Shown here piece by piece: positions 18,463 to 64,000 of a stretch of DNA of 64,000 nt. Position 1 is the first letter of the stretch. Each line of letters starts with the position of its first letter. Made by a program: the position numbers and the translations under genes. Source of the DNA: Marsupella aquatica (lineage: Eukaryota; Plantae; Marchantiophyta); assembly GCA_973895155.1 (NCBI GenBank), contig OZ316893.1, positions 24,479,520 through 24,543,519 on the forward strand. The letters run 5' to 3'. The notes under the pieces are model-generated. The model saw only the letters and a list, made by a program, of their open reading frames with translations. It had not been told where the DNA came from and searched no databases.

Positions 18463-19431
18463 GAGATGCTAAAGACTTTTTAAGAAGCGTGAGAGAGATT
18501 GCAGCTTGCTACTACTACTCACACACAGGAAGGAAGTGCCTAGTGAGTACTGATTGACCAGAACGAGGGACTTGCCATGGGAGGGGTCAGTGTGGTGGTG
18601 TGGGAGATTGTACAGCTCTGACTCTCAGCATCATTCTGCCTTGGAGGTGGAGGTTTAATGTGAAGAGAGGAGACACTAGCAGTACGACGAGCTCCGATAG
18701 ATTTCCTGGATGGGTGTTCGCATTGCCTGTGTAGAGCAACGGTGATCATTGTGCAAAGATTGGATTTTGTTCAGGTTCAGTCAAGATGGGGGACTTTGAG
18801 ATGTCGGACGGAGGATGACAGGAAGTGTTGTTGGGTCGACAGTTTTAGGCCCAAATTCTTCTAGTTCCTCGAGACTCTGAGGTTTCATGTCTAGCAGCTT
18901 TGCCGGTTGGAATCCTTGACGGCGATTTGGCGACAGGAGTAGTCGTCAGCTACGATCCAAGCTCCACCTCTGGCTCGCTCGGCGATAGGAGGTTGCAGTG
19001 ACTCTTCTGATTCACATGGGTGGGTGCAATCAATCGCAGGTGATATGGAGACGGATGTATCCACAGGGACTTTTGTAAACATTATGAAGTTTTCCGCAAA
19101 TTCCGGTGTATGGGGGAGAAAGTGGAGGCCAGGTGTATGCTGTAAGGCGGGTGGAGAGGCCCGTTCCGTGAGTATTTTTGCGAAACGGTGAAGCGTATGG
19201 AAAGATGCGCCCTTTTGGGATGACACGGGAGACGGTGGGCACGCTCCTAACTGTGGTCCTTGTGCTTTTGTGTTGATAGATTCTTGTGGGGTTGGAAGGG
19301 AACATTAGTGTCTTTTAGAACTGGAGGGTAGGGAATGCTTTCCCTGGACTGCCTGGATTGGTCGTTTCTCATGGTTCAGGACGGGAAGTGACCATCCAGT
19401 GAAGGATTGGAAGGTATTACCGAAACGAAAG

Positions 19432-22400
19432 ATGCACGATGGATCCAGACGGGCTGTCCTTGTCCAAGTTACCCTTGTCATTGTATTGTTGCTTTCGATC
19501 TTTGGAGCGTCCAGCCAGTTGGGATCCAACGTAGCAACCGCCATCCCCTCCCCGGGAAGCCTGGGATGCTATCTAGACGACCGATGCACTCTGCTGACCT
19601 TCAAGAAGGGGCTGTTGAAAGAGGGTGAACCCACATTGGCGAGCTGGAATAGTGCGGATGTGAGTCAGTGGAAAGGAGTGTCGTGGAAAACAGCGGCGGA
19701 TGGAACTTCTTATGCTGAGAAGTTGGAGCTCGGGGACTTGAAGCTCAATGGGACAGGCATTGCTCCTCTTCTGCAAAACGGCCTTACCTATCTGACCACT
19801 CTCAACATATCTGGCAATTTTATCTCAGCTACACTGCCAGACCCTTTGAGGATATGCCCTGCGCTACTTGTTCTCGATATCAGCAACAACAGCTTCGTTG
19901 GCAGACTTCCTCAGCTTCTCAGCTGCGATGACACGGTTAACGGCTCTGCTCCTCTTAATCAGGTTGCATTCGCTTCCACTAATTTGCGAGTGCTCAACAT
20001 CAGCAGGAATAACTTTTCGGGTGAGGTTCCCGGCTCTCTTTTTTCATCTCTTTTTTCTGGAGCAGGAGGTGGCAGCTTGGGCAATCTGACTTCTCTCGTG
20101 TTGGAGCATAACTCTTTGGAAGGGAGCTTTCCTTCCTCTATCGGCAATTGTACTGACCTGGTGGAGTTGAAGCTTTCGTTCAACAAGTTTTCAGGGCCCT
20201 TTCCCTTTGATGCCCTTCAAAAGCTTCAAAAACTCGAAATTGTGGAGGCTACGATGAACACCATCACGGGCGATATACAAATCCCAAATGATGGCAGAAG
20301 CTTTGGGCAGCTGAAATCTCTCAGTCTGAGCTACAATTCTCTTACCGGAAACATACCTGAGAGTCTTGGTAATTCTTCGAATCTGGAAACTCTCGAGCTC
20401 AAGTACAACAACCTCTCGGGTGCCATTCCGAAAACTCTGGGAAAGTTGTCCAAGCTGAAGATTTTGAGCCTCCAAAGGAACAATTTGAACGGGAGCATTC
20501 CGGAAGAGTTCTCCCAGCTGAGTAACTTGGCGAGCTTGAGCTTGAATCACAATAAGCTTAGAGGATCTCTCTCGCCTAATCTCAGCAACTGCACTAATCT
20601 TAAAAGCATCTGGTTGAATGAAAACTCTCTCTCTGGTGTTATTCCTCCTCAGTTGGGGAATCTCCCCAACCTCGTGGTGCTTTCTTTGTACGGCAATTAT
20701 TTCAATCAAAGTATCCCTAAAGAGCTGGGTCGATTGAGGACCCTAGTAGCTTTTGATCTCAGCTACAACAATTTGGATGGGAATATTCCGGATGAGCTCT
20801 GCGAGCTGTTCCAATTGCAGGTACTGCTCCTGGACTACAATCGTCTCACGGGTTTGATTCCCAACTGTTTTGGGAACTACACCTACATCCGACTTTTGGA
20901 CTTGTCAAACAATTTACTGACTGGTTATTTCCCTAATGATCTCAGTAACCTCTCGATGAATGTGCAGTCATTGGCTAAAGCTCCGGCTGAGCTTAGCTCT
21001 GCCACTTACATCCAGGAACTCAATGGTCAAGATCTTGTCTTTCAGTTCAGCCAGTCACCCATTTCCTACTACTTCTTCAATAACTTTCTCTCTGGACAAA
21101 TTCCATCAACTTTGGGTGGCATTCAAAACGTGCAGCAGTTGAGGCTTGAGAACAACAGTCTCTCTGGTTCTATTCCTGCGGCCCTTGGGAATGCATCTTC
21201 TCTCCTTGTATTGGATCTCTCTTATAATAATCTTAGCGGCGTTATTCCCCCCAGTCTTACCGGACTCCATTTTTTGTCTGAGCTGAATTTCTCTTACAAC
21301 AATCTGTCTGGGCAAATTCCGCAAGCCTCTCAGTTTCTGACCTTCAGCAAGTCTTCCTTCGTTGGAAACCCATATTTGTGTGGATTTCCTCTGGTGCAGT
21401 GTTCTCCCCCTGGTTCCCCAACTTCCGGTTCACAGGAAAGTTACGGTCGATCCATGGCCAAGAAATTACTGCCCCTGTACATCACGCTGGGGAGTGCATT
21501 TTTATGTGTATGCTTTCTAGGGGCCCTGGTTGCCTGGAGCTGGATGAGGGGATCTTCACGGAGGAACAGTTCCCTGGTTTCCAATGACGGTGATATTTAT
21601 GAGAACAAGGATGATCTACAGTACTATCAGGTGACCATTTCTAGTGTGCTGCCAGCCCTCCATCCGAAGGATCTGATACTGGCCACGGAGAACTATAACG
21701 AGAACAACATTATTGGAGATGGAGGATTTGGCTTAGTGTACAAAGCTGTGCTATGCTGTGGCTCGGTAGTGGCTGTGAAGAAGCTCCTGGAGGATGGTGC
21801 ACAAGGGCAGAATGAGTTTCTGGCCGAAATGCGGACCTTAGGGAAGATAAAGCACAAGAATCTTGTCACCTTGCTGGGTTACTGTGCATATGGCAAGGAG
21901 AGGATACTTGTGTATGAGTACATGAAGAATGGGAGTCTGGACACCTGGCTCCATTGTCGAGATGACGGGATGGCAAGTTTAGACTGGAGAACACGGTTGA
22001 AGGTGGCTAGGGGAGCTGCGGAGGGGCTGGCGTTTTTGCACCATGATTCTGATCCGACCATCATACATCGTGACATCAAGGCCAGCAACATCCTCCTTGA
22101 CTGCAATTTTGAAGCTCGATTGGCAGATTTCGGGCTAGCCAGGTCTACTAGAGCTTTTGAGAGTCACGTGAGCACTGACTTCGCAGGGACAGCAGGGTAC
22201 ATTCCCCCAGAATATAGCCAAGCGACAGCAGCAACCACGAAAGGTGACGTGTATAGTTTTGGTGTAGTTCTTCTAGAGATCCTTACTGGCAGACGACCTA
22301 CAGATCCTTTCTTCAAGAAGAACGAAATGTCTCATGTGGCTACCTGGATTTTAGATATTTCCTTGGAGTCTATCGAGAAGTCGTTCGATATGACTTCCGC

Positions 22401-22590
22401 AGCTTCAACTGATGAAATGTTGGAGATGATGAGAATTGCCCGCCTCTGTTGTCAGGATGTTCCTTCCAAGAGACCCAGTATGGGTGACGTAGTGATGATG
22501 TTGGATGCTCTTGAGAGGCAGCAGAGTCCTTCGAGGAGCCCGAGTGTTGTACTATATGATGATGCCATGTCCTCGCCAAGGTGTCGTTAG
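19432..22590 (+). CDS. Intronless LRR receptor-like kinase, LRR-X group (PSKR/EMS1/BRI1-related), ~1052 aa
   Basis: Hydrophobic signal segment, LRR N-cap (LLTFKKGL..LASW...W.GV), >20 LxxLxLxxNxLsGxIP repeats, island at 20953-21060, C-cap GNPYLCG, TM helix. RD kinase with IGDGGFG, VAVKKL, HRDIKASN, DFGLAR, GTAGYIPPEY, GDVYSFGV. First in-frame ATG is 19432; the track start at 19399 is GTG. Confidence 0.95.
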   Translation: MHDGSRRAVLVQVTLVIVLLLSIFGASSQLGSNVATAIPSPGSLGCYLDDRCTLLTFKKGLLKEGEPTLASWNSADVSQWKGVSWKTAADGTSYAEKLELGDLKLNGTGIAPLLQNGLTYLTTLNISGNFISATLPDPLRICPALLVLDISNNSFVGRLPQLLSCDDTVNGSAPLNQVAFASTNLRVLNISRNNFSGEVPGSLFSSLFSGAGGGSLGNLTSLVLEHNSLEGSFPSSIGNCTDLVELKLSFNKFSGPFPFDALQKLQKLEIVEATMNTITGDIQIPNDGRSFGQLKSLSLSYNSLTGNIPESLGNSSNLETLELKYNNLSGAIPKTLGKLSKLKILSLQRNNLNGSIPEEFSQLSNLASLSLNHNKLRGSLSPNLSNCTNLKSIWLNENSLSGVIPPQLGNLPNLVVLSLYGNYFNQSIPKELGRLRTLVAFDLSYNNLDGNIPDELCELFQLQVLLLDYNRLTGLIPNCFGNYTYIRLLDLSNNLLTGYFPNDLSNLSMNVQSLAKAPAELSSATYIQELNGQDLVFQFSQSPISYYFFNNFLSGQIPSTLGGIQNVQQLRLENNSLSGSIPAALGNASSLLVLDLSYNNLSGVIPPSLTGLHFLSELNFSYNNLSGQIPQASQFLTFSKSSFVGNPYLCGFPLVQCSPPGSPTSGSQESYGRSMAKKLLPLYITLGSAFLCVCFLGALVAWSWMRGSSRRNSSLVSNDGDIYENKDDLQYYQVTISSVLPALHPKDLILATENYNENNIIGDGGFGLVYKAVLCCGSVVAVKKLLEDGAQGQNEFLAEMRTLGKIKHKNLVTLLGYCAYGKERILVYEYMKNGSLDTWLHCRDDGMASLDWRTRLKVARGAAEGLAFLHHDSDPTIIHRDIKASNILLDCNFEARLADFGLARSTRAFESHVSTDFAGTAGYIPPEYSQATAATTKGDVYSFGVVLLEILTGRRPTDPFFKKNEMSHVATWILDISLESIEKSFDMTSAASTDEMLEMMRIARLCCQDVPSKRPSMGDVVMMLDALERQQSPSRSPSVVLYDDAMSSPRCR

Positions 22591-26952: not shown

Positions 26953-28060
26953 ATCCCCTTGGGCTCGGCGTATTACCTACTCTTGGGGGTTACCTTACAC
27001 CTTTACACTAGAGTACTGTATAACGGAGAAGAGAGAGAGAGAGAGAGCATTCTGAGATGGTTGCTGTTGGCAGTTGACAGTTATGTATATTGCTCTTGAA
27101 TCTCATCCCCCTGGAATCGCCACCCACAGAGAGCGAGAAAGAGAACGGGAGAAGAATGCATTCTTTGAAGTTTTCTCTGGCAGTCTTGGCTCTCGATTCT
27201 CAACTACTCGGAATGCCCGGGTCGGAATTGCGTGATTGCATATTCATTTTTTAGAACTTGTTCATCCTTCTTCCACACTCTGATCTGTCATTGTGCTCTA
27301 CTGGGTCGGAATCGGGAATGGCTTGATTGAATTCATTCCAGTGTGCTCACTGTTCTTCTTCCATTGTTCTGCTCTGTTGTGCTCCTCAAGGTCATGATCA
27401 GAATGGCGTGATTGGGCTCAAATTGGGTCATTCCCAGTGTTCGTGGATGGAGGCACACAGTATCGGCAGTGTCCCAGGCTGCGAGAATAGATATTGTCGA
27501 ACAGACGATTTGTTGAGGCGGAGGATTGGCTGCTCTGATTCTCGCCGCCCTCCTCCTTCTGTCTCTTCCTCTCAATTCATAAAAGAGTTCTCTCCCTCTC
27601 GATCTATGTATCGGCCGTCATTCATCCCGTCTCGTCTGTTGAAGAGGAGACTCTGCATTGGGACGAATTTGATTGATGGCGTATCGTTTTTTGACATGGA
27701 GCGAGAGGGTTCCACGCATGGGGAGAGAAACGTCTGCTTAGAAATGAGAGACCGTGAGGTACGACATTCTTTTATGAATTGAGAGAGTAAGAGGGACTTT
27801 TATTGATGGATACTTGGAGCAGGACATAATACATTTATGAATTGAATCGGTGATAGTCGTGAAGGTAGAGGAGACATGGTGTTGTAGAATTATGTCCTGA
27901 TTTATTTACTTTCGTCCTGGCCCGCAGGAGGCAGAGTCATGTTACCTCCGGAGATGTGTCTGTGTTGTGCACTGCAAGCTTAGTGCTACTGCTGCTCATC
28001 AGCAGTTGTCTGTGCTGACGTTTGAGGGAAGTTGAAATCGAATTTACTGGAGACAGTGGC

Positions 28061-29536
28061 ATGGCGATCCGGAGGGCAGGGTCTGTCCTTGCACGGAGGT
28101 TGATAGCCGTGGCGGAGCAGTCGAGGAGCGGAGTGAGCGAATTGAATGCAACACGAAGTTCTTTGGTCACATCGGCATGGAGCGTTCCTTATCAAGAAGA
28201 GTATGTCGAGCCCGGATTGTTGGCGTCGGTGTCAGCCCAGGCGTATCGTCATCCATTTCCTGAGTGGACGTTTCCGTGGGCCTTGCAAGGATTTCAGAAG
28301 CCACGACAAATATTGTTGCCATCCTCTGCTGAAGAGCGAAGGGAGTCAATGCTTCGGGACGACGATGACGAAGGAGATGATGAAGCGGAGGAGCCCGCGA
28401 AGGATTTGGTGCTGAATGTTGCAGAAACGAGAAAGATTGTACAACAGGTGAATGCAGTTGCGTTGAAGAACAGACTAAAAGCTGACCCCCGGGATAGTTT
28501 TAGTTACCGAGATCTACTTGACTTTATCAAAGAAGCAGGAGTGGCTTCAACTAATGAAGAGGCGATGCGGTTCGCTCGCATTCTCGACGAGGCCGGAATT
28601 GTGCTTATTTTCCGGGACAATGTCTATATCCATCCGGAGAGGGTGAGTCCTCTGCCAGCACTTCGTTTCTTTTGATTCTTCTGCTGTAGGTAGTTTCCTA
28701 CTTTTATCATCAACACTTTCTTAGTTTCCTACTTTGTGTTCGAGGACTAGTACATTTTACTATTTTCTGTGAATTCAATGCTCTTAGTATTTTCTGTCCA
28801 ATTCGTTTCAAAATTGGCCCCACACTCTGAGGACACTCTTCGAAAAGTTGGAGAGCTTGGCCATTTCAATGCCCCCTGTCTTCTTCGAATCGTTCGGTGT
28901 GGGAAACATAATGATTTCTGCCCCTTGCAATTCTTCATATTCTCCATCCAACCTTATCATTTGAATGAGAATGGTAATCGCAGAATGTCAGCCTCCCGCT
29001 GCTCGTCCGAATTTCGTTTAGGGGGTTTCTTTTCTTTTCGTCGGCCGAGGAGTCGTCATCAAACGAAGATGTTTTGACTATTGTTCTCTATGTGATAAAA
29101 GGTTGCAAAGCTCGTGGCACATGCACTTCCCTTTGCCGTCGTCCCAATGGATGATCCCCGTCGAGCGGAGCTCATGCAGCTGGAGCAGCAGAAGATCGAA
29201 GTAGATGCCATTGCCCGCAAGCAAGTGCGGAGATACTTGTGGACGGGGTTATTAGCACTTACCTTCCAAGCAGCGCTCTTCTTCCGGCTGACCTTTTGGG
29301 AACTGTCATGGGATGTGATGGAGCCCATCGCTTTCTTCGTTGGCTCAGCTGGACTCATCGTTGGCTACACCTTTTTCCTCTTCACTGCGAAAGACCCCAC
29401 TTACAAAGATTTTATGGAGAGGCTCTTCCGCTCGAGGCAGATGAAGCTTCTCAAGAATAAAAATTTTGACCACTCAAGGTATGAGCTTCTCAGGAGGCAA
29501 TGCCAATGTCTCGACCTTGATGAGAAACATTCGTGA
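28061..29536 (+). CDS. MCU: Mitochondrial calcium uniporter (MCU/DUF607) family protein, 338 aa; exons 28061-28642 and 29102-29536; probable 5'UTR intron 27759-27927
   Basis: Arg/Ala-rich N-terminal presequence MAIRRAGSVLARRL, conserved LDEAGIVLIFRDNVYIHPE, two TM helices around the pore motif FWELSWDVMEPIAFF. Phase-0 GT..AG intron 28643-29101. Confidence 0.93.
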
Positions 29537-52600: not shown

Positions 52601-53025
52601 GTTTTTCAATTTTGGGAAGATTTAGATAGTGTCTTTCACTGAAAAAGTAGTCATATTCAGTTGTGCCATGCAATGGTCATTCTTTTTGTCTAGCACACTT
52701 GAAATTTCTTGTGTTTTGTATTATAGTATGCTATAAAAATTGTGGTCTTGTATGGGAAATTTTTGCATGATATTAATTACTGGAGTGACTGCATGTGGTT
52801 TGGTTTGTAAGACAAATTGTGATGTACCGTTGTTGACAGAATTACAGGGTAACTTTAATTGGTTGACAATACCAAAGTTTTTTCCTCATTTCAAATGATA
52901 AACTAATTATATCAGGTTTTTGATCAAAATTTTAGGATGTGTGCATCAGAGATATCCGCAAGCCAGGAAAAGCTTTATTTTTGAAGTACAAATAATTTAT
53001 ATTGTTTGCAAAGTCATGAATCCAA

Positions 53026-53159
53026 TGGTCTCCATGGTATATAATGTCAACAATCATTGTTGCATAAATGCAGTGGTCTTCATAGTATGTGATGTCAAAA
53101 TTCATTGTTACATAAATGCAGTGGTCTTCATAGTATATAATGTCAAAAATCATTGTTCC
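53026..53159. repeat. 48-bp tandem repeat, ~2.8 copies
   Basis: tggtct(c/t)cat(g/a)gtat.t.atgtcaa.a.tcattgtt.cataaatgcag units. Confidence 0.9.
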
Positions 53160-53969
53160 ATGAGGACGACAACTTTGGCAAAAGATTTTTGTGGGTTATT
53201 CCAAGAATCTTTAAAGACTAATTTTAAACATCTTTATAGAATATTTTAGGTCTTTGCCGGGGTCTTTGTGGAATACTCAAAGACTATTGCAAAGTGTTTC
53301 ACCAACTGAGTGCACCTCAAGTTAGATGCCAACTAACCTCCCCTACGCTCCTCTTCAATTATGCATGAATGTTCTTGTGCTACTCTCTATCCTTGGGCAT
53401 AGGAGTAGCAAAGGATCTCAACTGGTCATGTGTAACAAATGGCTTGAATGTGATGGCGCTTATATCATGCATGATTCGCCTTCTACATGCTTATGGGGAC
53501 CTGCCACCCCAAGACTACCTCTGGTTCAATGTTTCTGGCTCCCAGCTAGCTAGCCTCCTGGCTAGCCTGAGTCTAGTCGGGATCATACAAGGCCACGATG
53601 TCCAATTCTTGGGTTTGTTAACAATGGTACACATGACATTGCAATCAGTACATGTGAGAGCTCATGATAGTGCTACAAGTAACCACTCATGACCCTGGAC
53701 CTTCCTTACGATGCAGCCTTGTTGGACTTATAGGGTATTGTAATGGGTCTACAACTTACAATTTTTTTCTTTCAATTGCTAAGATTTAAATAAACCGATG
53801 GTCAAAATACACTGACAGCTTTTCATTGTGTATCTCTCATTTAGTGGGTTGGTCACTTATAGTTGGGGAGGTAAATTTAGGGTAGTTAGTGTTTTTATTA
53901 TAGACCCCCGTGAGAAGTGCCTTTCAAAATTCTTGGCTCCACGTGCCACCAGCACTACTACATATTTGC

Positions 53970-54510
53970 CAATTTTGCGAAGGCGTTTTACAAGAGGAAG
54001 AAAGCTTTGCAAGATTAATCTCATCGCTAAACTTGCGATCCGATACGCATCGCACTTAGCGCATCTACACACATCGCAACACATAATTGCGAAACTTAGA
54101 CCATCGCAACATTTTACGACACTTCAGGTATCGCAAAACATTTCCGAAGCAATTACCATTGAACAAGTTAGCGATCTTTACCGCTTCGCAAATTCATTGA
54201 GATGCGCCGGAAAACTAAATGGTTGCGAATATTTAAGCATCTCAAAATATTTTGCGAGTCTTATTGTCTCGCAAATGAGAGATGTTTGTGGAATATATGG
54301 CTAACTTGCGATAGTAATAGGCTCGCAAATCCTGTGCCTGTCTAGGGTCTCATTTTGTGAATGTTTTGGTTTTGCAACTTTGAGATGGTGGTATCTTCGG
54401 AAGTTTGCGATGAGGGAATGATGGCAATTAGGGAGCAGTTAAGTATCGCAAATGTAGCGATGAGTTTGCGGGTGTAGGGGTTTCGCAAGATGTTTCGCAA
54501 AATATTATGA
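53970..54510. repeat. Subterminal repeat array (TCGCAA/TTGCGA core)
   Basis: Many copies in both orientations immediately inside the CACTA terminus. Confidence 0.85.
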
Positions 54511-55307
54511 GCGCTTCAAAGAGGTGGAAAAGGAATGGGATTGGGGAGGGAGGGTAAAGGAGGGTGGATACATGTAATTTTTAGGGAGGGACAATGAAAA
54601 GGAGGAGGAAGGGAATGGGGCTAGGAGGGACAAGGAACGGAGGGATCCAAGAGGGAGGATACAGGTTTAGGGGGCACAAGGAAATGAGGGAGGAGGAAGG
54701 GTATGTAGATATAGTTTTAGGGAGGGTTTGGATTTAGGGAGTGAAAATAAAAAGGAGGGAGTTTAGGGTTTAGAGAGGGACAAGGAAAGGAGGGAGGGTA
54801 TTGGTTTAGAGAGGGACAAGGAAATGAGGGAGGTTTAAGGGTATAGGTTTAGGAGGGAGGAGAGAAGCTAGGTTGTATAGGTAAGAGTGGGGGACAGGGG
54901 TGGAAAGTAAGGAAAGTATAGGGTTGAAATAGAAAGCCAGGGGTTGGGACAAGGAGAGGAAGGAGGAAGGAGGGTTTAATAAGAGGGACAGACAATGAAA
55001 GAAAGGAGGAGGGAGGTGGGTACAAGTAATAAGGAGAACAGCTAGGGGGGGATTAGGAAAGCATGGAGGATAGAGGACTACAAGCAACATGAGTTTTCTT
55101 TGCATAAAGTCTACCAAAAGGTGTGGTGAGTATGGGGTAGGGATGGGAGATATAGAAAACAACATTTGAAAATGATATACTTACAAAACATAAGTTTATT
55201 GATAATTGAGAAGCACATATTTCTCCATTCTACCGAGAAGAGAAATCTTCATATCATCAAATCTAACTATATATCCGTGTAGCTATATATCCACAAACAC
55301 AGACCCC

Positions 55308-58300
55308 TCAAACTTGGTCCTCATCATCTTCAGGTTGGGACACAACCAGAATATCAGGCTTTTCCCCAACGATTGAACAAGACCGTGGCACATATGTGAT
55401 GACAAGTGACCATTCCTCTGGGTTTGGGGGGTATGGAATATAGAAACATTGTTCCACATGACTTGGAAAAGTGAACGGCTCTGATGTTTGCCAATGAGAT
55501 GGCTGGAAACTAGTGGCAGACGTCTTCAGTCGTGTAAATCCACACTCATCTTGAACCACAGTAGGATTGTTACCTGCAAGGTTCACTTTGAACCACTTGC
55601 ACTTGAAGACATACTCTTCAAACTTTGATTGTGCATCATAAGATATCACTAGAATCTCTTCTACCTTTTCATAATGTGACACAACATCTCGAATAATATT
55701 TGTGTCATGGCGACTGCTGCGGGAATCTTGAGAGAATTGTCCTTGAACTCCACAATCAAAGGTACGACCCCTCTTCTCATCAAGGGAAGAAATCCTAAAA
55801 TCCATCAAACCATAAGGATATGTTACACAAAAATAGACACAAACATATTCCAATTAATTGAACACACCAAGAATCTGCCTCTTCAATATATGTGCTTGTA
55901 TTACAAATGAATTAAATTAAACCAAGTGATTCAAATCAAAGGTTACTACGGTAGATGGAGATCACCTGAAATGTCTTCCTTGTGTCCACATTGCTGTCCT
56001 TGTTGTAACCACTCTCAAGGGACCATGAACAATGGTACGAACATCATCTGTGATAGCCGGAAAATGTAATACACTCTCTCCCCTGACCACCATGTCATCC
56101 ACCTCAACTAACTTCTCCTTCATATAGTCAAGGTACTTTGGAAAAATCCTTGGTCTTGTGCTGTTACTTTTGGCATCCTCATAGAAATCCCTCCATTCTT
56201 CCATGATAGTGCTGTTACTCAACATGAATGTGGTCAGTTGTTTCACCTCCACTGGTGTCAACATGCGAGTTTTCCTAGCACCTGTTAAACGATCCTCTTC
56301 ATCTTCCCTCTCCTCTACCCAAGTACGGGGAGAGGTACAATCAATTGTGGCCAATATGTTACTACAATAGAACATACTCTCAGCTGCTAAGTATCCTGTA
56401 GCCATGCTTCCCTCAACCCGTGCACGGTTACGTACATAACCTTTTAACACTGCCATGTATCGTTCTAGCCAATACATCCACCGACAATGCACAGGACCTG
56501 CAATGGCCACCTCATGAACAAGATGAACAAGTAAATGCACTTGACAGTCAAAAAAGGAAGGAGGAAGGGCCTTCTCCAACTTGCATACCACCTCTGCTGC
56601 CAAAACCTCCATCCCAGGGATCTCATCAGTATATATCTCCTTAGAGCATACCCATCTCAATAGTTTTCCCAATGACCAAAGGGCATCTTGCACTTCTTCA
56701 CTTGCCAAACCTATTATGGCCACAGGCAATATGTGCTGCAATAACCTATGGTAGTCATGTGTCTTGAGATACCTTGGCCACTTATGATTGTCCTCCATCC
56801 CAAAGGCCTTTCGGAGATTGGCACCATAACCAGTAGGAAACCGCATGTCTCCTATGCGATTCTGAAACTCCCTTCTCTGGCCAATAGGAAGCACCCATGG
56901 AGCTGAAGGTCGATGCTCGATCCCTGTGATAGGATCACTTATGACCCACACGTCTGGATGCATCTCAAGATCCTCACAAGCCTCCCTGAAGTTAGTGTCT
57001 TTCTCTCCATAGAAAGCCTTTATCAAAGCCTTTCCCACATTTCCCTCAATGTGCATGGGGTCTAATAGATGGCGGATCTTCAACTCACCCCAATAGGGCA
57101 AAGTGGTTAATATACTCCACCTTGTCAAGCCACTACCGTCAAATTGCATGGGATCCTCTGGGTCTGCCACTCTTGCAGCCATGTCTTTCCAGTGTGTAAA
57201 AGTTGTTGGCTCAGGTACATCACGCTCGTCACCAAAGGGCATATCAATAGAGGAAAATAGTAGTGGGTCACGCCTCATCTGATGTCCCATTGGAAGAAAC
57301 TTTGTATGCCCAAGATAAACAATCTTGCGAAGATGTGATGAATACTTGGCTACATCACCAAGGCTTGGGCCACAAGTGGAGCAAGCCTTGTAGCCTTGGG
57401 TTTGCAACCCACTCACAAAGCCAAATCCTGGTCATATAAACACACATTATGTTAGGATTAGCACATGGAAATGAGGGGATACCATGCATTAGAATATGAT
57501 GCATTTAAACAACAAAGTTCTTACCTGGGTAGTCATGCATGGTCCACATACAAACCCCTTTGAGTTTGAAAACCCGTGGGGTACCCCCTGTAGTCTTTCA
57601 ACCATCATATGCCCATACTCCTTCCCATAATTTCTGGAGTTCCTGAACCAGTAATGTCAAATAGGTGTCCATGTTCTTCACCTTCTTTGGCCCTGGGATA
57701 ATCAAAGATGGCAACAAAAAACCCTTTTTCATGGACAACCATGGTGGAAGGTTGTAATTCATGAGAACCACAGGCCAAACCGATGTAGGTCTCCCCTTCC
57801 CTCCAAGTGAATGAGGGCTAACTCCATCTGATGCCAACCCCAGTCGCACATGCCGAGGGTCACGCTCAAAATCTGGCCATGTTGATTCCACATGTTTATG
57901 AGCAGGAGAGTCAACTGGTAATCGCATGACACCGGGCTCCGAACGATGTTTCTTGTGCCATACCATCAACTCGGCCAAGTCAGAACATCTATACATGTGC
58001 AACAAGCGAGGAATTATGGGGAACCAACAAACTGCTTTCCTTGGTACCTTCTGGGTTAGCATGTTTGGCTCATACCGTGGCTCATGACACACTGTGCATT
58101 CTGTGATATGGGCTATATCCCCGTGAAATAACATGCAATCATTCACACAGGCATGAATAATATGGTAATCCATACCAATGGATGAGAGAACCTTCTTTGT
58201 ATCCTTCCAGGTCCCTGGCAACACATTCTCCGAGGGTAACATCAAGTCATGACAATATTCAAATATGTCTGATAACATAGAATTGCTTGTCTTGTGTTTG

Positions 58301-60078
58301 GCTTGAATATTCAAGAGCCCCAATATGGCAGAAAGACGGCTCAACCGAGCACCCTCAAAAATAGGTGTTCGAGCATGTTCCTCTGCCTCTTTCCATTGTT
58401 GTTGTCCCTCTGGAGTATGTTGTGGCCGTGGGTCATTTGAAGGGCCAACCTCATGACCAATGTGAGGCACATCATCCTCAACATCGGCACCAAACCAATC
58501 AACCATGAAGTCATCCATGGCTCTATCTTGATCATGCATGACCTGGTCATCAGTCCGAGGTGCGGCTTCCTCATCAGCACCACCTACATCATTACTTGAT
58601 GAGGAATCACCCTCTGATGGTTCTCCCTCTTCTGGCATACCCATCTCCCGATATGTTGCTCTCAACCTTCGTGGTAACATTTGTTGAGATGGTTGCGCAT
58701 TCTATGCACATTACAACCAAAAAACCTCCTCATGTATATTTGACCAAGTACAACAAATTAAAATAGACTTAACACCATTCATTCAAGACATTAAGAATTA
58801 AAGTAAATGCATGGGCTAAAACCTTATTACTCCAAAATGAGCCCAAAGGCCATATATATAATAGTAAATGGGAAGTCCAAAATAGGTGCAAGAGGATAAA
58901 GGACATGATTTCCTAATCCCACTCATAGTGTGTGAATAACTCATCTCCTGCTCTAATGGTCCTAGTAGCAAGAACTAAGCAATGGTCCTTATGATATGTC
59001 GTGCCATATGGTGCCGGCATTGGACCATCAGTAAAAACCCACTCACAATTGGCCCTATGCTTGGGCCGAGTCCCCACAGTACTATTTATGAAACCAGCAA
59101 TATTCCCATTACGTATGGGATCACCATCTATCACCCGCTGCTCACTATACCTTCTAGTGCTACCATCAAAGTATCCATCTCTAGAGCATATGTTTTCCAC
59201 TCAGGATGTTGTGCAAGGATCATGTTCCAATGTCTTCTCTTGTAGATGGGTCCACCGTATGGGAACAAAGTAGGACCCTCTCTACCACGAACACTTGACC
59301 CACCCTCCTCATCCATGATGATATCCTCACAAGCAAATACTCCATATCCATGTCTCTGTCCAAGTGTGGAAGTTTTCACAATCCAACGTCTACCCCAAAC
59401 CACAATCTCCTCATCAAAATCTGTAAAATAAGGCAAGCCAAGAGTGATAGGTTCCCAATCCTTGATGATAGAGGCACACTTGCCAGTGAATGAAAAAACA
59501 CCCCACCTACCCTGAACTAGTGTTCTGGATGGGTCATTGGGTGCTCGTGGCCTCCTGTTGGATTGGGGCCTGGACCAGGGTCTTCGTGTCTCAGTGGGCA
59601 CATGAGGGTGTTCCCCTTCTGTCCCATGACTGGTACTAATTCCCAAACCCAAGGCTTGTGAAAGTGCATTGCCTATAGCATCTAAAACTCCTTGTGATGG
59701 GACATAGGGTGGTGGTGTCACCAATCTACGCATACTGGATCCCTATTCCATGCAAACACCCACAAACAACCAAATGTGTAAACCATATGTGTAAACATTG
59801 ATTCACCTCTAAAAATAACAGTAAAGAACGGCAATCAATTGAAACAAACTTACCATATGGGATGAAGAAGCCCCGGGAGTAAGACCTCTATGACGTCCAT
59901 ATCTCTCAATATGTTGAGCACACACATAAGATTTTTGAGAAATTTGGCCCACACATCTGGTGCAGTCACAAAGTCTTCGGGGTGGACCACGAGGACCGGT
60001 AACCTCGGGCTGAGGAGGAGGGGGTATATCATCATCAGAGGAGTACTCACTACTGGATAGTTCAGAGGAAGAGGACAT
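55308..60078 (-). pseudogene. CACTA TnpD/TNP2 transposase (~1116 aa spliced); exons 60078-59854, 58701-57525, 57427-55966, 55794-55308; one in-frame TGA at 57600-57598
   Basis: Transposase_21 motifs IHACVNDCMLF, FPIIPRL, RHVRLGLASDGVSP, SVWPVVLMNYNLPPW, LIIPGPK, HDYPG..SG..GYKACSTC, HLLDPMHIEGNV. DUF4218-type KTHDYHRLLQ and RWMYWLERY; DUF4216-type FKCKWF and EPFTFPSHVEQCFY. Introns are GT..AG and the exon sum of 3351 nt is divisible by 3. Confidence 0.9.
58913..59742 (-). CDS. SET-domain exon (lysine-methyltransferase-like) nested in transposase intron 1; 1-nt frameshift at 59168-59170
   Basis: SET motif I GYGVFA (59349-59332), motif II PYGG, IDGDP..GNIAGFINS (motif III, 59095-59081), ANC, and ATRTIRAGDELFTHY (motif IV, GDELFTHY at 58948-58925). 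Track ORFs 59131-59733 and 58913-59200 join if one T is added (MDT-FDG). Confidence 0.85.
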
Positions 60079-60184: not shown

Positions 60185-61250
60185 TACATGGGGTTTTATT
60201 ACCCTTTTATATTTGTTAGCATGAAACCCAAATTAAGGTGAGTGTCATGCAAGAAGAAACCACATTATAACCTTTGGGAAAATTGTAATACCCTATGTCC
60301 TAAGTGAGGTTAGATTATTACCTGAATGAGACCCAGGCTCAACAGTGCCTATAGGTCACGTGGCTTTTGGAACATTTGCCAAATCTAGAAGTAGGAGGAA
60401 AATACTGGAAACAAAATGTAAGTTTGGATGGTAATTAGCAGCCGTCAAGTTGTGGAATCTTAGACATTTACCCACATATATCATGGCACAACAAAGAAGG
60501 GCAAGCATAAAAATCTGTACTAACAACATTGACTGTATACATGATGTTATACCTTTTAGATGCCCGGGTTCCCACAATGCATATGCATTAGACAAAAGTT
60601 GAGGTAGTAGTGTTGGCCCTGCGTTGTATCATGATTACATGGGTTTTCCCCTCAATTGTTAGCATAAAACCCTAAACCCTAAACCCTAAACCCTTATCCC
60701 CCCTCGAGTGAAAGGTGAGTGTCATGCAATAAAAACCCACCCTAGACCCCTGGGAAAACTCTAAAGGCCTAAGCCCAGAATGAAGTTGGACAATAATTAC
60801 CTGAATGAGATCCGGACTCAATAGTGCCTGTAGGTCGTGTGGCTCATTGAACATGAGCTGAATCTAGAAGCACGAGAAAAATACTGGAAACAAAAAAGTA
60901 AGTTTGGATAGCCATTAGCTTCTCTCAAGTTGTAGACCCCCAAACATGTGCATATAGATATTCTTGCACAACAAAGAAGGGCAAGGTTTATGAACAATCT
61001 CTTTATCAAACCCTGCTAACATACATGTTTAAATATACCTTTTAGATGTCCGGGTTCCCACAATGCATATGCATTAGACAAAAGTTGAGGAAGCAGTGAT
61101 GGTCCTGCACTGGATCATGATTACATGGGATTTCCCTCAATTGTTAGCATAAAAACCAAAACCTCATCCCGCTTCAAGTGAAAGGTGAGTGTCATGCAAT
61201 AAAAACCCACCATAGACCCTTGGGAACTCTAAAAGCGTAAGCCAATGAAG
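60185..61250. repeat. ~450-490-bp tandem repeat (~2.3 units) between the divergent genes, including (AAACCCT)4 at 60667-60694
   Basis: tacatggg...ttgttagcat...aaggtgagtgtcatgcaa recurs at ~60186, ~60636 and ~61122. Confidence 0.85.
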
Positions 61251-61936
61251 TTAGCAAAAACCTAAATGGTCAATTCCCTTCAACCATCCTATGCTTCTCT
61301 CTACCATAATTATATGCCACCCCTCTTGGTTACCCTCCTAAGATACCATAAAAGTAACCCAAGATACTATAAAACTGAAACCTCTCTTTCAAACCCTCCT
61401 AAGTTGGCCTAAACCCCAAAACCCAAAACATAAAACCCCTCCTAGCTCTTACCCTCCAATACATATAACCCCAACCTTCATAAATAAAACCCCCTGCAAA
61501 CCCAAAACATAAAACCCCTCGTATCTAAGCCAATCTAAGCCCAACCTTCACAAAAGAAACCCTCCCCTAACCAGGCCAAACCCCCTCCTCTTACCCTGCA
61601 ATATAACTCCTTCAATTTTCTAACCCCCCCAATCCTTATCTCATCACATCCCACTAAAATGCAACATAATCCTCTACATCTACCCCATTTAATGTTCATA
61701 AGCCCCCTTAGTATCCCTAACAATACATCAAATACGCATGCGAGACGGGGGTTATGGCAAAACCAAATAGCGAAGGCTTTTGCGAATCTTGAAGCTTCGC
61801 AAAGATGCATCGCAAATTGCGATGCGAAACGAATTGCAAAGCCCAATATTTTGAATCCTTATGGATTGCCGAGCGCGGACAAGGCAGATTCAGTTCATTC
61901 AGGCCTGAGGAGAGCAACGAGGGCAAGGGCGGAGCG

Positions 61937-64000
61937 ATGGCGAGCAAAGAGGGGACTGGTGGTGATGGAGGAGCTTCTGGCAGCAGCGGAGGCAACCGAG
62001 GGGGGGGGATCGATTGAAGGCGATTGTGGATGAGCATTTTTCGGTTGCACAGTTGAGTCAAATTGATTTCACCAGTCCAGCAGGGCTGGCATCATTGAGT
62101 GCCCTTCTGGGCCAAGCCTTGCAAGCAGGTCTCATTGCAGGGCAAGCAGCAGTGGAGGAGGATGCAAGGAAGGCAGCAGAGTAGGCGGCTGCTGAGAGGA
62201 AGCGAAAGAGGGACGAGAGAGCTCAGGCTGGAGTGCTCTCGCCTCAAGCATTGGAAAAGAAGAGGAGGAAAGATGAGAGAGACCTGATCAGGAAACAGAG
62301 GGAGGAGCAAAGAAAGAAGGAGGCAGCAAGGAGGAAGCTGCCTCTGATTACTTTAGAGGATGAGGGGATTCCCACCGAGCTTGCTTACAATGGGGCCAAG
62401 AGCACAATCAGGCACATTGTATCCACAAATTTTGCAAGAGGAGTCGAGTGGGGCACTCGCTCAAAGGCAGAGCAGAAGCGAGTCATCAATCAGGTGAAAG
62501 ATGCATTTCGAAATGGAGGAGAGATGGATTCACAGTGGCTTGCTGACAAAATTTCAAACTCCATGTCACAAGCTAGATACCATGATAGAATGAAGATCAG
62601 GTCTCACCTTAGAGATTTGGAGGAGTATAGGAATTTGCAGAGGCCGCTGCAATTCTCATAAGATATCTGGCAGGCCTTCTACCAGACAGAGGTGAAGTTG
62701 AAAGCAGCCAGGCTCCTCAATGATTTCACAGAGAAGCTGGCAAAGGCTCGAAGGGCAAAGGAGGCCGGGAAGTCTGATCGGGACCTGAAGGTGATGGAGC
62801 AGAAGGTAGCCCAGCTCCAGCAGGTTGTAGCAGAAGTAGGCGATCCACCCAACAAGTTCCTGAAGGCAGCTGAGCGAGTCCGAGACAAGCCCAACATCAC
62901 CCACAGGCTGGGTCAAGGTGGCCTCCCCGGCCTCAAAGCAGCATTCGTGAGTGCACCTCCCTCTCCTCCCTTGACTTCTTGCTACTCCAATTCCTATTCC
63001 AACACACCTGCAATGAGCCAACTCTTTCTTGCATTTCCACCAAGTAGTTACAATTAGACTTGTTGTGTCAAATTAGGTCACGTACAATTGCTTCCCTCTT
63101 GGGTTTTTGCCATGACAGAGTTTGCGATACATTTGCGATGCGGGTAGCTTCGCAAATCCTTCGCAAACCTTATTATGCCCTTTTTTTGCTTACGTTTGCG
63201 AAGGCGTTGCGAAGACGTTCGCATCGCAACCAGCTTCGCAAACGTAATTGTCCTTATGATTGCGAAGCTGGCGCCTTCGCAAAATTTCAAAAATTTGAAT
63301 TTTTAAATTTTCCGATCGTTTAAGTGTTCTTTGAGGGTCTTCCCCATATATGCCACCCTCCATAACCCCAAAACCTTGATGCACCACCCCACCAGCCCCA
63401 ACAAACCCCCTAATTTTTAGAAGCCATGTGAATCGGGTTATGGGTTGGTGTTAACCCAATTGTGCTGGTTTTGTTTTGGCTTAGTACAAGAGGTACAAGA
63501 GGAAGATTACGGCGGCTGAGATGGAGGTGGGCCAGAAACATGGGAAGGAGCATCTCTTTCAGCAAGTTGATGAATTATTGGTGAGAATTTTTAGGTTATT
63601 ACATTCATTGCAATTTTGAATGAATATCTCTTTTGTTCACACTTGTAAAGAATATGAGACTAACAGACACCCTGGTTTGCTAATGGAAGCAGGGAGGGGA
63701 GGATGGTGACTCCCATACCGAGGGTGGCATCGATAGTAGTGATGAGGATGTGGAGGGGACAGGGGAGGGGAGCACAGCTCCTGCTACTCAAGCCAGGCCA
63801 ACTAGCACTGGAGACCAGTCATTTGCATCAGCACGTTCCAGTGGTGCTGGGGGTGGTAGCGCGGCAAGCCAGGGCGGTGGAGGTGGGGATGAGGATGAGG
63901 ATGAGGATGAGGGTGACCCCAAGGGTGACCAAGAGGAGGAGGAAGTCCAGGTTGCACCCCCCCAAGAGCACACAAGGGCAAGGAGAAGGCCAAGGGGAAG
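61937..64000 (+). pseudogene. TnpA/PTTA-like (Transposase_24-type) second ORF of the CACTA element; exons 61937-62946, 63485-63580, 63667 to beyond 64000
   Basis: Basic NLS-like stretches, RP......IW..F and the PTTA-type R.K...HRLGQGG motif. GT..AG introns 62947-63484 and 63581-63666. Disrupted by TAG at 62182, TAA at 62659 and homopolymer frameshifts. Confidence 0.7.

Follow-up and report, generated by a model that had tools for sequence, protein, structure and literature searches.

How can a plant DNA transposon encode both its transposase and a SET-domain protein from one gene, and do the two products share a first exon? This question is raised by a CACTA/EnSpm element on contig OZ316893.1 of Marsupella aquatica, which was analysed in a stretch of 64,000 nt (hereafter the window) with the SET/TNP2 gene on its minus strand. 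The element in the window has decayed and belongs to a bryophyte CACTA/EnSpm family with a conserved SET exon in the first transposase intron; across the family the layout, the splice sites and their phases are conserved, the SET exon is under purifying selection, and its product has the SET fold. Based on these findings, we propose with moderate confidence that the family is a splice-choice element, wherein a zinc-finger exon could be joined either to the transposase or to the SET protein, the latter being a predicted lysine methyltransferase that would serve the element, with chromatin as its most likely target.

Organization of the SET/TNP2 gene

Exon 1 comprises 225 nt (75 amino acids) and ends at the donor ATG/GTAAGT (slashes mark exon borders), and two downstream acceptors are both in frame with it: acceptor A, AATAG/GGA at 59742, opens the terminal SET exon, and acceptor B, GCATAG/AAT at 58701, opens TNP2 exon 2 (Table 1). 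Re-reading of the sequence found the exon, the donor, both acceptors and the common frame of the original prediction to be correct, and the coordinates confirm its placement of the SET exon wholly within the 1152-nt transposase intron. Exon 1 and the SET exon together give the expected product of 351 amino acids, with an X placed at the single break near 59167, where one base is missing from the window copy. The transposase path runs through four exons and 1116 codons, the length originally estimated, but a premature TGA at codon 443 (57600-57598) had been overlooked. The Cys/His motif first described as CDCTRC-x10-C-x2-H is there, with the spacing C-x-C-x2-C-x13-H, although its second Cys/His pair is lost in distant relatives. 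Profile searching, which had been suggested as a check, matched both SET and Transposase_21 on the exons of the spliced products: the Pfam scan placed SET (PF00856) on the C-terminal half of the SET exon (59200-58916) at an E-value of 2e-5, above the cut-off, and Transposase_21, DUF4218 and DUF4216 (PF02992, PF13960 and PF13952) on the downstream exons at 1.9e-32, 4.6e-34 and 3e-8. By a simple consensus score, the long intron contains no donor stronger than the exon-1 donor that is kept across families, and weaker sites within the SET exon recur.

The transposase carries LASDG, MHDYP and WLERY at positions 364, 463 and 787, which we take to be the D-D-E catalytic motifs, with ACSTC at 482 and HLLDPMH at 587. 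For CACTA/EnSpm transposases a C(2)C and H(3-4)H rule between the D-D-E motifs has been described (PMC12730594), and the window transposase shows this arrangement. A CACTA terminus with subterminal repeats marks one end of the element at 53953; the second end lies past the window edge, and the matching end CACTACAAC occurs in three related loci (L001, L004 and L037), although no single locus contained both ends.

The window copy is dead in both products because of the premature TGA in the transposase and the frameshift in the SET exon. The element is covered by contigs from five public runs, and sister-copy contigs read through both lesions. In run X1 the dominant contigs hold the base missing at 59167 and are open across the stop at 57600, and the depth of the element contigs in this run, 506-631 against 20.6 for the flank, suggests about 25-30 near-identical element copies, contig depth being a rough guide. 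Joints in the public-run contigs coincide with neither predicted splice junction and are not evidence on expression.

Table 1. Coordinates of the SET/TNP2 gene and of the other element features within the window
Feature	Position	Strand	Description
Exon 1	59854..60078	-	Ser/acidic/Pro-rich start, then C-x-C-x2-C-x13-H-I-x3-G; PF13963-like; phase-0 donor
Short intron to acceptor A	59743..59853	-	111 nt
Terminal SET exon	58913..59742	-	Variable linker, then SET core of ~200 amino acids, end GDELFTHYEWD-stop
Long intron to acceptor B	58702..59853	-	1152 nt; whole SET exon inside
TNP2 exon 2	57525..58701	-	Transposase_21; LASDG and MHDYP motifs; premature TGA 57600-57598
TNP2 exon 3	55966..57427	-	CxxC, HLLDPMH, DUF4218, WLERY
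TNP2 exon 4	55308..55794	-	DUF4216
Element end	53953..54520	.	CACTACTAC terminus at 53953; subterminal TTTGCGA/TCGCAAA-type repeats
Divergent second gene	61937..64000	+	Broken in window copy, conserved in relatives; TnpA-like by position only
~480-bp unit, three diverged copies	60235..61230	.	Spacer of the divergent gene pair; presumed promoter region

Conservation of the layout and selection on the SET exon

At the DNA level, the layout was compared in 39 loci from a peat metagenome scan, nearly all of one Sphagnum-type family, of which L005 and L018 match a Sphagnum jensenii protein at 96-97%. TNP2 exon 2 stands directly behind the SET exon in 22 of the 39 loci, 14 others stop within 228 nt of the SET match, and the remaining three, without TNP2, have truncated SET matches. 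The SET exon thus occupies the same position in other copies, the comparison for which the original prediction had called. The donor is in the same phase in all 16 loci that include exon 1, and the phase is kept at acceptor A in 23/24 loci and at acceptor B in 21/22, both misses being AG-to-AA changes. The short intron measures about 117 nt in Sphagnum-type loci and 111 nt in L016, a third family that has the same donor, acceptor A and, in its final bases, acceptor B. The phase of the donor and of both acceptors is common to the three families.

Beyond these loci, a profile search collected 110 SET clusters at 50% identity. Nine of the 29 SET representatives looked up had a named organism, in every case Riccia sorocarpa or Calypogeia fissa, and the nearest named relatives of the window sequence come from Calypogeia fissa and Sphagnum. 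In seven of 105 new representatives, the gene model continues from SET into TNP2 exon-2 sequence (weakest E-value 0.018), and two of these seven are named Riccia; Riccia SET cores are 37-45% identical to the window core, and the adjacency therefore holds in distant lineages too. No relative turned up when prokaryote genomes and viral contigs were scanned by pattern, a narrow test (0/30 and 0/24 candidate stretches). A deep branch of the SET family (P0177, P0178 (Calypogeia fissa), P0175, P0196, P0150 and P0181) has differing N-termini, with a SET core identity of about 33% for P0177 and P0178, and its proteins could be domesticated or reside on other elements.

Sphagnum and Calypogeia share 77% identity in their SET cores (152/198), and a quick tree of 60/62 rows, searched without bootstrap, joins the moss sequences to those of Calypogeia and of the window (SH-aLRT 98). 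Synonymous divergence (dS) between the window and Sphagnum-type elements is only 0.5-1.0 (55308-59742 against L005, L010, L016 and L018). These values offer a lead towards a possible horizontal transfer of the element between peat mosses and leafy liverworts.

Selection was estimated from Nei-Gojobori counts with our own script and bootstrap intervals. Between the window and four loci the SET core gave a nonsynonymous divergence (dN) of 0.15-0.17 and a dS of 0.54-0.56, that is, a dN/dS ratio of 0.26-0.30 with bootstrap intervals of 0.16-0.46, and between L016 and L005 the ratio was 0.32; the Cys/His part of exon 1 and the transposase gave 0.14 and 0.13. A dN/dS below one had been named beforehand as the signature to look for, and the value of about 0.27 for the core supports the view that the SET exon is conserved and under selection as a component of the element family. 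The SET core appeared to have a lower dS (0.54, 0.38-0.74) than the transposase (0.91, 0.77-1.10), but this contrast is lost at fourfold sites (22/64 vs 122/289), and no other reading frame is open across the core; therefore nothing is drawn from its lower dS.

Exon 1 and its two predicted partners

A profile of 28 angiosperm TNP2 N-termini scored 8.6 bits against the window exon 1, a value reached in 0/200 shuffles, and HHalign of an exon 1 profile against the same N-termini gave a probability of 82.6% with an E-value of 9.7e-6 over 32 columns. The Cys/His motif lies at residue 37 in exon 1 and at residues 16-47 in 26/27 angiosperm proteins. Because the 28 segments were picked by their Cys/His pattern, this likeness is support rather than proof. 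For the transposase-associated domain PF13963, Pfam returned no match to the window exon 1, and the relative P0152 reached an E-value of 0.031, below the cut-off. Since exon 1 looks like the Cys/His domain with which CACTA transposases usually begin, it is likely the transposase's own first exon, into whose intron the SET exon would have been inserted, and the SET protein likely borrows it. The N-terminus common to both products, as first suggested, agrees with this resemblance and with the phase 0 of both acceptors, although the joins themselves are predicted.

The joining of exon 1 to the transposase appears very probable, and its joining to the SET exon quite probable. The same exon 1-SET junction appears in gene models in public databases for Sphagnum jensenii, S. 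troendelagicum and Calypogeia fissa.

Fold and predicted activity of the SET protein

The structure was modelled for P0015, which is 83% identical to the window core, from an alignment of 59 sequences, with a predicted local distance difference test score (pLDDT) of 93.2 and a predicted template modelling score (pTM) of 0.87. Foldseek ranked SET8 first (E 1.3e-7), and a wide structure search returned Set1/COMPASS (Z 12.1, root-mean-square deviation (rmsd) 2.5, 124 aligned), EZH2 (Z 11.8), SET8 (Z 11.7) and SET7/9 (Z 11.6), so that structure prediction, another check suggested at the outset, bears out the SET fold. A PDB sequence search with an alignment of 18 close sequences gave no match; in Atlas, SET clusters were returned for the C-terminal half (0.97), with a recognition value under its mark.

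The window SET exon contains motif I (GYG), motif II (PYGG) and motif IV (ELFTHY), three of the four motifs originally claimed, but its motif III reads NS and not the canonical NH. Across the aligned relatives GxG is kept in 55/58 and 58/59, the motif III Asn in 52/59 and the final Tyr in 47/51, and the motif II Tyr is Phe in 15/59; in the SET family the (Y/F)xG and the later Asn are nearly invariant. In 48/51 relatives a small or aliphatic residue stands two positions ahead of the final Tyr, which by the Tyr/Phe-switch rule would allow di- or trimethylation by the SET protein.

Of the PDB sequences, LegAS4, a minimal SET protein of bacterial origin, matches best (E 6.6e-5); it has Phe at motif III (NF) and is reported as an H3K14 methyltransferase (10.64898/2026.05.29.728679); because of this match, the missing motif III His does not exclude activity. 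For the host SET classes (E(z), ASH1, TRX, SUV and ATXR5/6) the best PDB sequence E-values were 0.007 or weaker, and Pfam scans of 40 relatives found no pre-SET, post-SET, AWS or PHD domain. We consider it fairly likely that the SET protein is catalytically active, as a predicted S-adenosylmethionine (SAM)-dependent lysine methyltransferase.

Proposed mechanism and alternative explanations

We propose that one promoter region could drive the divergent accessory gene in one direction and exon 1 in the other. First, use of the near acceptor would yield the Zn-finger-SET protein of 351 amino acids, where the frame ends, and use of the far acceptor would skip the SET exon and yield the transposase; because the SET exon ends in a stop, choice of the near acceptor would exclude the transposase from that transcript and thereby act as a built-in switch. 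Upon translation, the common finger may direct the two products to one and the same location or partner, where the SET core would methylate a lysine. Candidate targets are, in this order, histones at the element's own copies, a transposition protein, and, as the third option, none, the SET domain being a dead scaffold. A histone substrate at the element's own copies, serving counter-silencing or self-regulation, is a tentative proposal that we rate somewhat short of even. The fullest version, in which a splice switch and an own histone writer would mark the element's chromatin against host silencing, in the first such land-plant transposon and with partly horizontal spread between moss and liverwort, is more doubtful still.

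Several observations weigh against the proposed splice-choice element with an active SET enzyme. Only three families entered the DNA comparison, because the 39 loci are nearly all Sphagnum-type, and of the 19 loci that span the full SET exon region just 5 are intact. The public proteins that join exon 1 to SET are gene predictions, and the 13 database matches of exon 1 include no annotated full exon 1-transposase protein. An in-frame Met lies at most 8 codons behind acceptor A and acceptor B alike, and the SET exon or the transposase exon could therefore start internally. On the side of the enzyme, the motif III His is replaced, by Ser in 56/59 relatives and with no His among the residues listed, and a post-SET Cys cluster is lacking. 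The fold matches are tied among H3K4, H3K27, H4K20 and non-histone enzymes, and therefore no class or substrate can be read from the fold.

The alternative that survives best, although unlikely, is that the SET exon is a separate nested gene that starts within the intron, at a Met 3-6 codons behind acceptor A, with exon 1 belonging to the transposase alone. This Met is conserved in the window, Sphagnum-type and L016 families, and many database relatives begin at it, though these seem to be unspliced calls on contigs. Against a nested gene stand a phase-0 TAG/G kept 111-117 nt behind the donor in three families with a dS of 0.4-0.6 between them, and P0123, called on a 2141-bp Logan contig, which holds the Cys/His motif and SET within one protein of 423 amino acids; the Riccia gene models, at a core identity of 37-45%, also join a Cys/His part to SET.

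Less probable again is an active methyltransferase with a non-histone target, either the transposase or the divergent protein, through which transposition would be tuned. Such a role would suit an enzyme that has neither reader nor pre-/post-SET domains, that resembles SET7/9 and other classes equally and that has its N-terminus in common with the transposase, whereas the H3K14 activity reported for LegAS4, its closest PDB sequence match, points to histones.

It is improbable that the SET fold has lost catalysis and serves as a module for binding, or that it is a splice decoy limiting transposase output. The change from NH to NS and the Phe variants of motif II are what a dead enzyme might show, as is a SET dN/dS twice that of the transposase; yet relatives with as little as about 25-35% identity still show almost no variation in the SAM-site glycines, the Asn and the final Tyr, LegAS4 likewise lacks the His, and a pure decoy would not need conservation at the protein level. 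Finally, chance capture of a host SET fragment followed by neutral decay, as in a Pack-CACTA element, is hardly credible, since the broken state of the window copy and of 14/19 metagenome copies is outweighed by the selection test (dN/dS about 0.27, intervals below 0.51) and by the spread of the exon, whose 110 clusters form a family of their own with no host SET class named among them and which occupies the same position before TNP2 in Riccia lineages.

The divergent second gene and the surroundings of the element

The product of the divergent gene has a basic coiled region, a conserved HRLGQGG motif and an acidic tail, and its dN/dS is 0.09 (61937-64000 of the window and L022:470-1243). It belongs to no Pfam family and did not match the single PF03004 protein compared, so that its identity as TnpA was not confirmed. 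Complex prediction for the SET core and the divergent protein was uninformative (score 0.00). Between the two genes, the copies of the ~480-bp unit are 75-91% identical, and L026 has a shorter repeated unit in the corresponding region. The TTTGCGA/TCGCAAA repeat also clusters at 61779-61843 and 63132-63284, on either side of the divergent gene's main coding block, and these clusters are possible binding sites for an element protein.

The genes flanking the element are ordinary plant genes. In the window they include a GH9 glucanase exon (97-678, +), a leucine-rich repeat receptor kinase in a single open reading frame (19309-22590, +) and a mitochondrial calcium uniporter (28019-29536, +), and a 48-bp unit stands in three tandem copies at 53015-53161, outside the element.

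Relation to known systems

SET cargo has been published for other DNA transposons, namely HarbingerS and oomycete MuDR (PMC12730594), proto-Helentrons, whose SET is 50% similar to Clr4 (PMC4067079), and red-algal Plavaka of the EnSpm superfamily, in which the SET-bearing PAG2 is proposed to modulate the element's own chromatin (10.1101/2025.02.11.637652). The novelty is therefore below what the original prediction implied; what stands is that our literature search, outside Repbase, subscription journals and preprint supplements, found no report of SET in a land-plant CACTA element or of a shared exon, and that the accessible parts of PMC12513842, PMC12477816, PMC4158355 and 10.1101/2024.09.22.614159 do not describe such an exon. 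HarbingerS, oomycete MuDR and proto-Helentrons resemble the window element in having SET genes on DNA transposons, but they belong to other superfamilies, in oomycetes, and the window SET fits no host class, in contrast to the Clr4-like one. Plavaka is closer, as an EnSpm-superfamily element with a SET domain; however, the PAG2 gene stands apart and is a fusion with an adenine DNA methylase, on elements of 17-19 kb, and the available account describes no shared exon.

Maize En/Spm and Arabidopsis ATENSPM3 produce TnpA and TnpD by alternative splicing (PMC13547354, 10.64898/2026.08.24.746577). With these the window element has in common the CACTA terminus, the TNP2/TnpD transposase and two products from one gene by alternative splicing, which is predicted here. 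It differs in that the alternative product is a SET-fold enzyme and not TnpA, that the SET exon lies within the transposase intron behind a common coding Cys/His exon, and that a further gene is present on the opposite strand, head to head. The TnpA of Spm3 is reported to hypomethylate its own copies (PMC13547354, 10.64898/2026.08.24.746577). VANDAL VANC resembles the SET protein only in its proposed role, as an element factor countering the silencing of its own family; it is a sequence-specific regulator without a SET domain, and a Mutator-like element carries its gene as a separate one.

Among enzymes, SET8/KMT5A, Set1 and the Legionella protein LegAS4/RomA share the fold and the motif order with the window-family SET, and LegAS4 also the missing motif III His. 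They differ from it by an identity of only 17-28%, an extra N-terminal hairpin and insertions, and no substrate is transferable from them. SETMAR is a domesticated host fusion, with SET and transposase domains in one protein, and its SET domain aligned to the P0015 model with Z 8.2 (rmsd 3.1, 132 aligned). Although both cases bring SET and transposase sequence together at one locus, in the window element, which is mobile and multi-copy, the two are predicted to form separate products that exclude each other.

In conclusion, this work adds an unclassified SET family that counts at least 110 clusters. Many unnamed 'SET domain-containing' gene models of Sphagnum, Calypogeia and Riccia can thereby be understood as parts of transposons. 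The SET protein is small and confidently folded and has intact natural copies, which makes a direct substrate assay feasible. The shared first exon, if true, would couple transposase output to the enzyme. The known anti-silencing factors of plant transposons, VANC and TnpA, are DNA-binding regulators, and a histone writer carried by a land-plant element itself, if true, would represent a different strategy, in a group in which transposons are repressed by PRC2 as well (10.1101/2022.10.24.513474).
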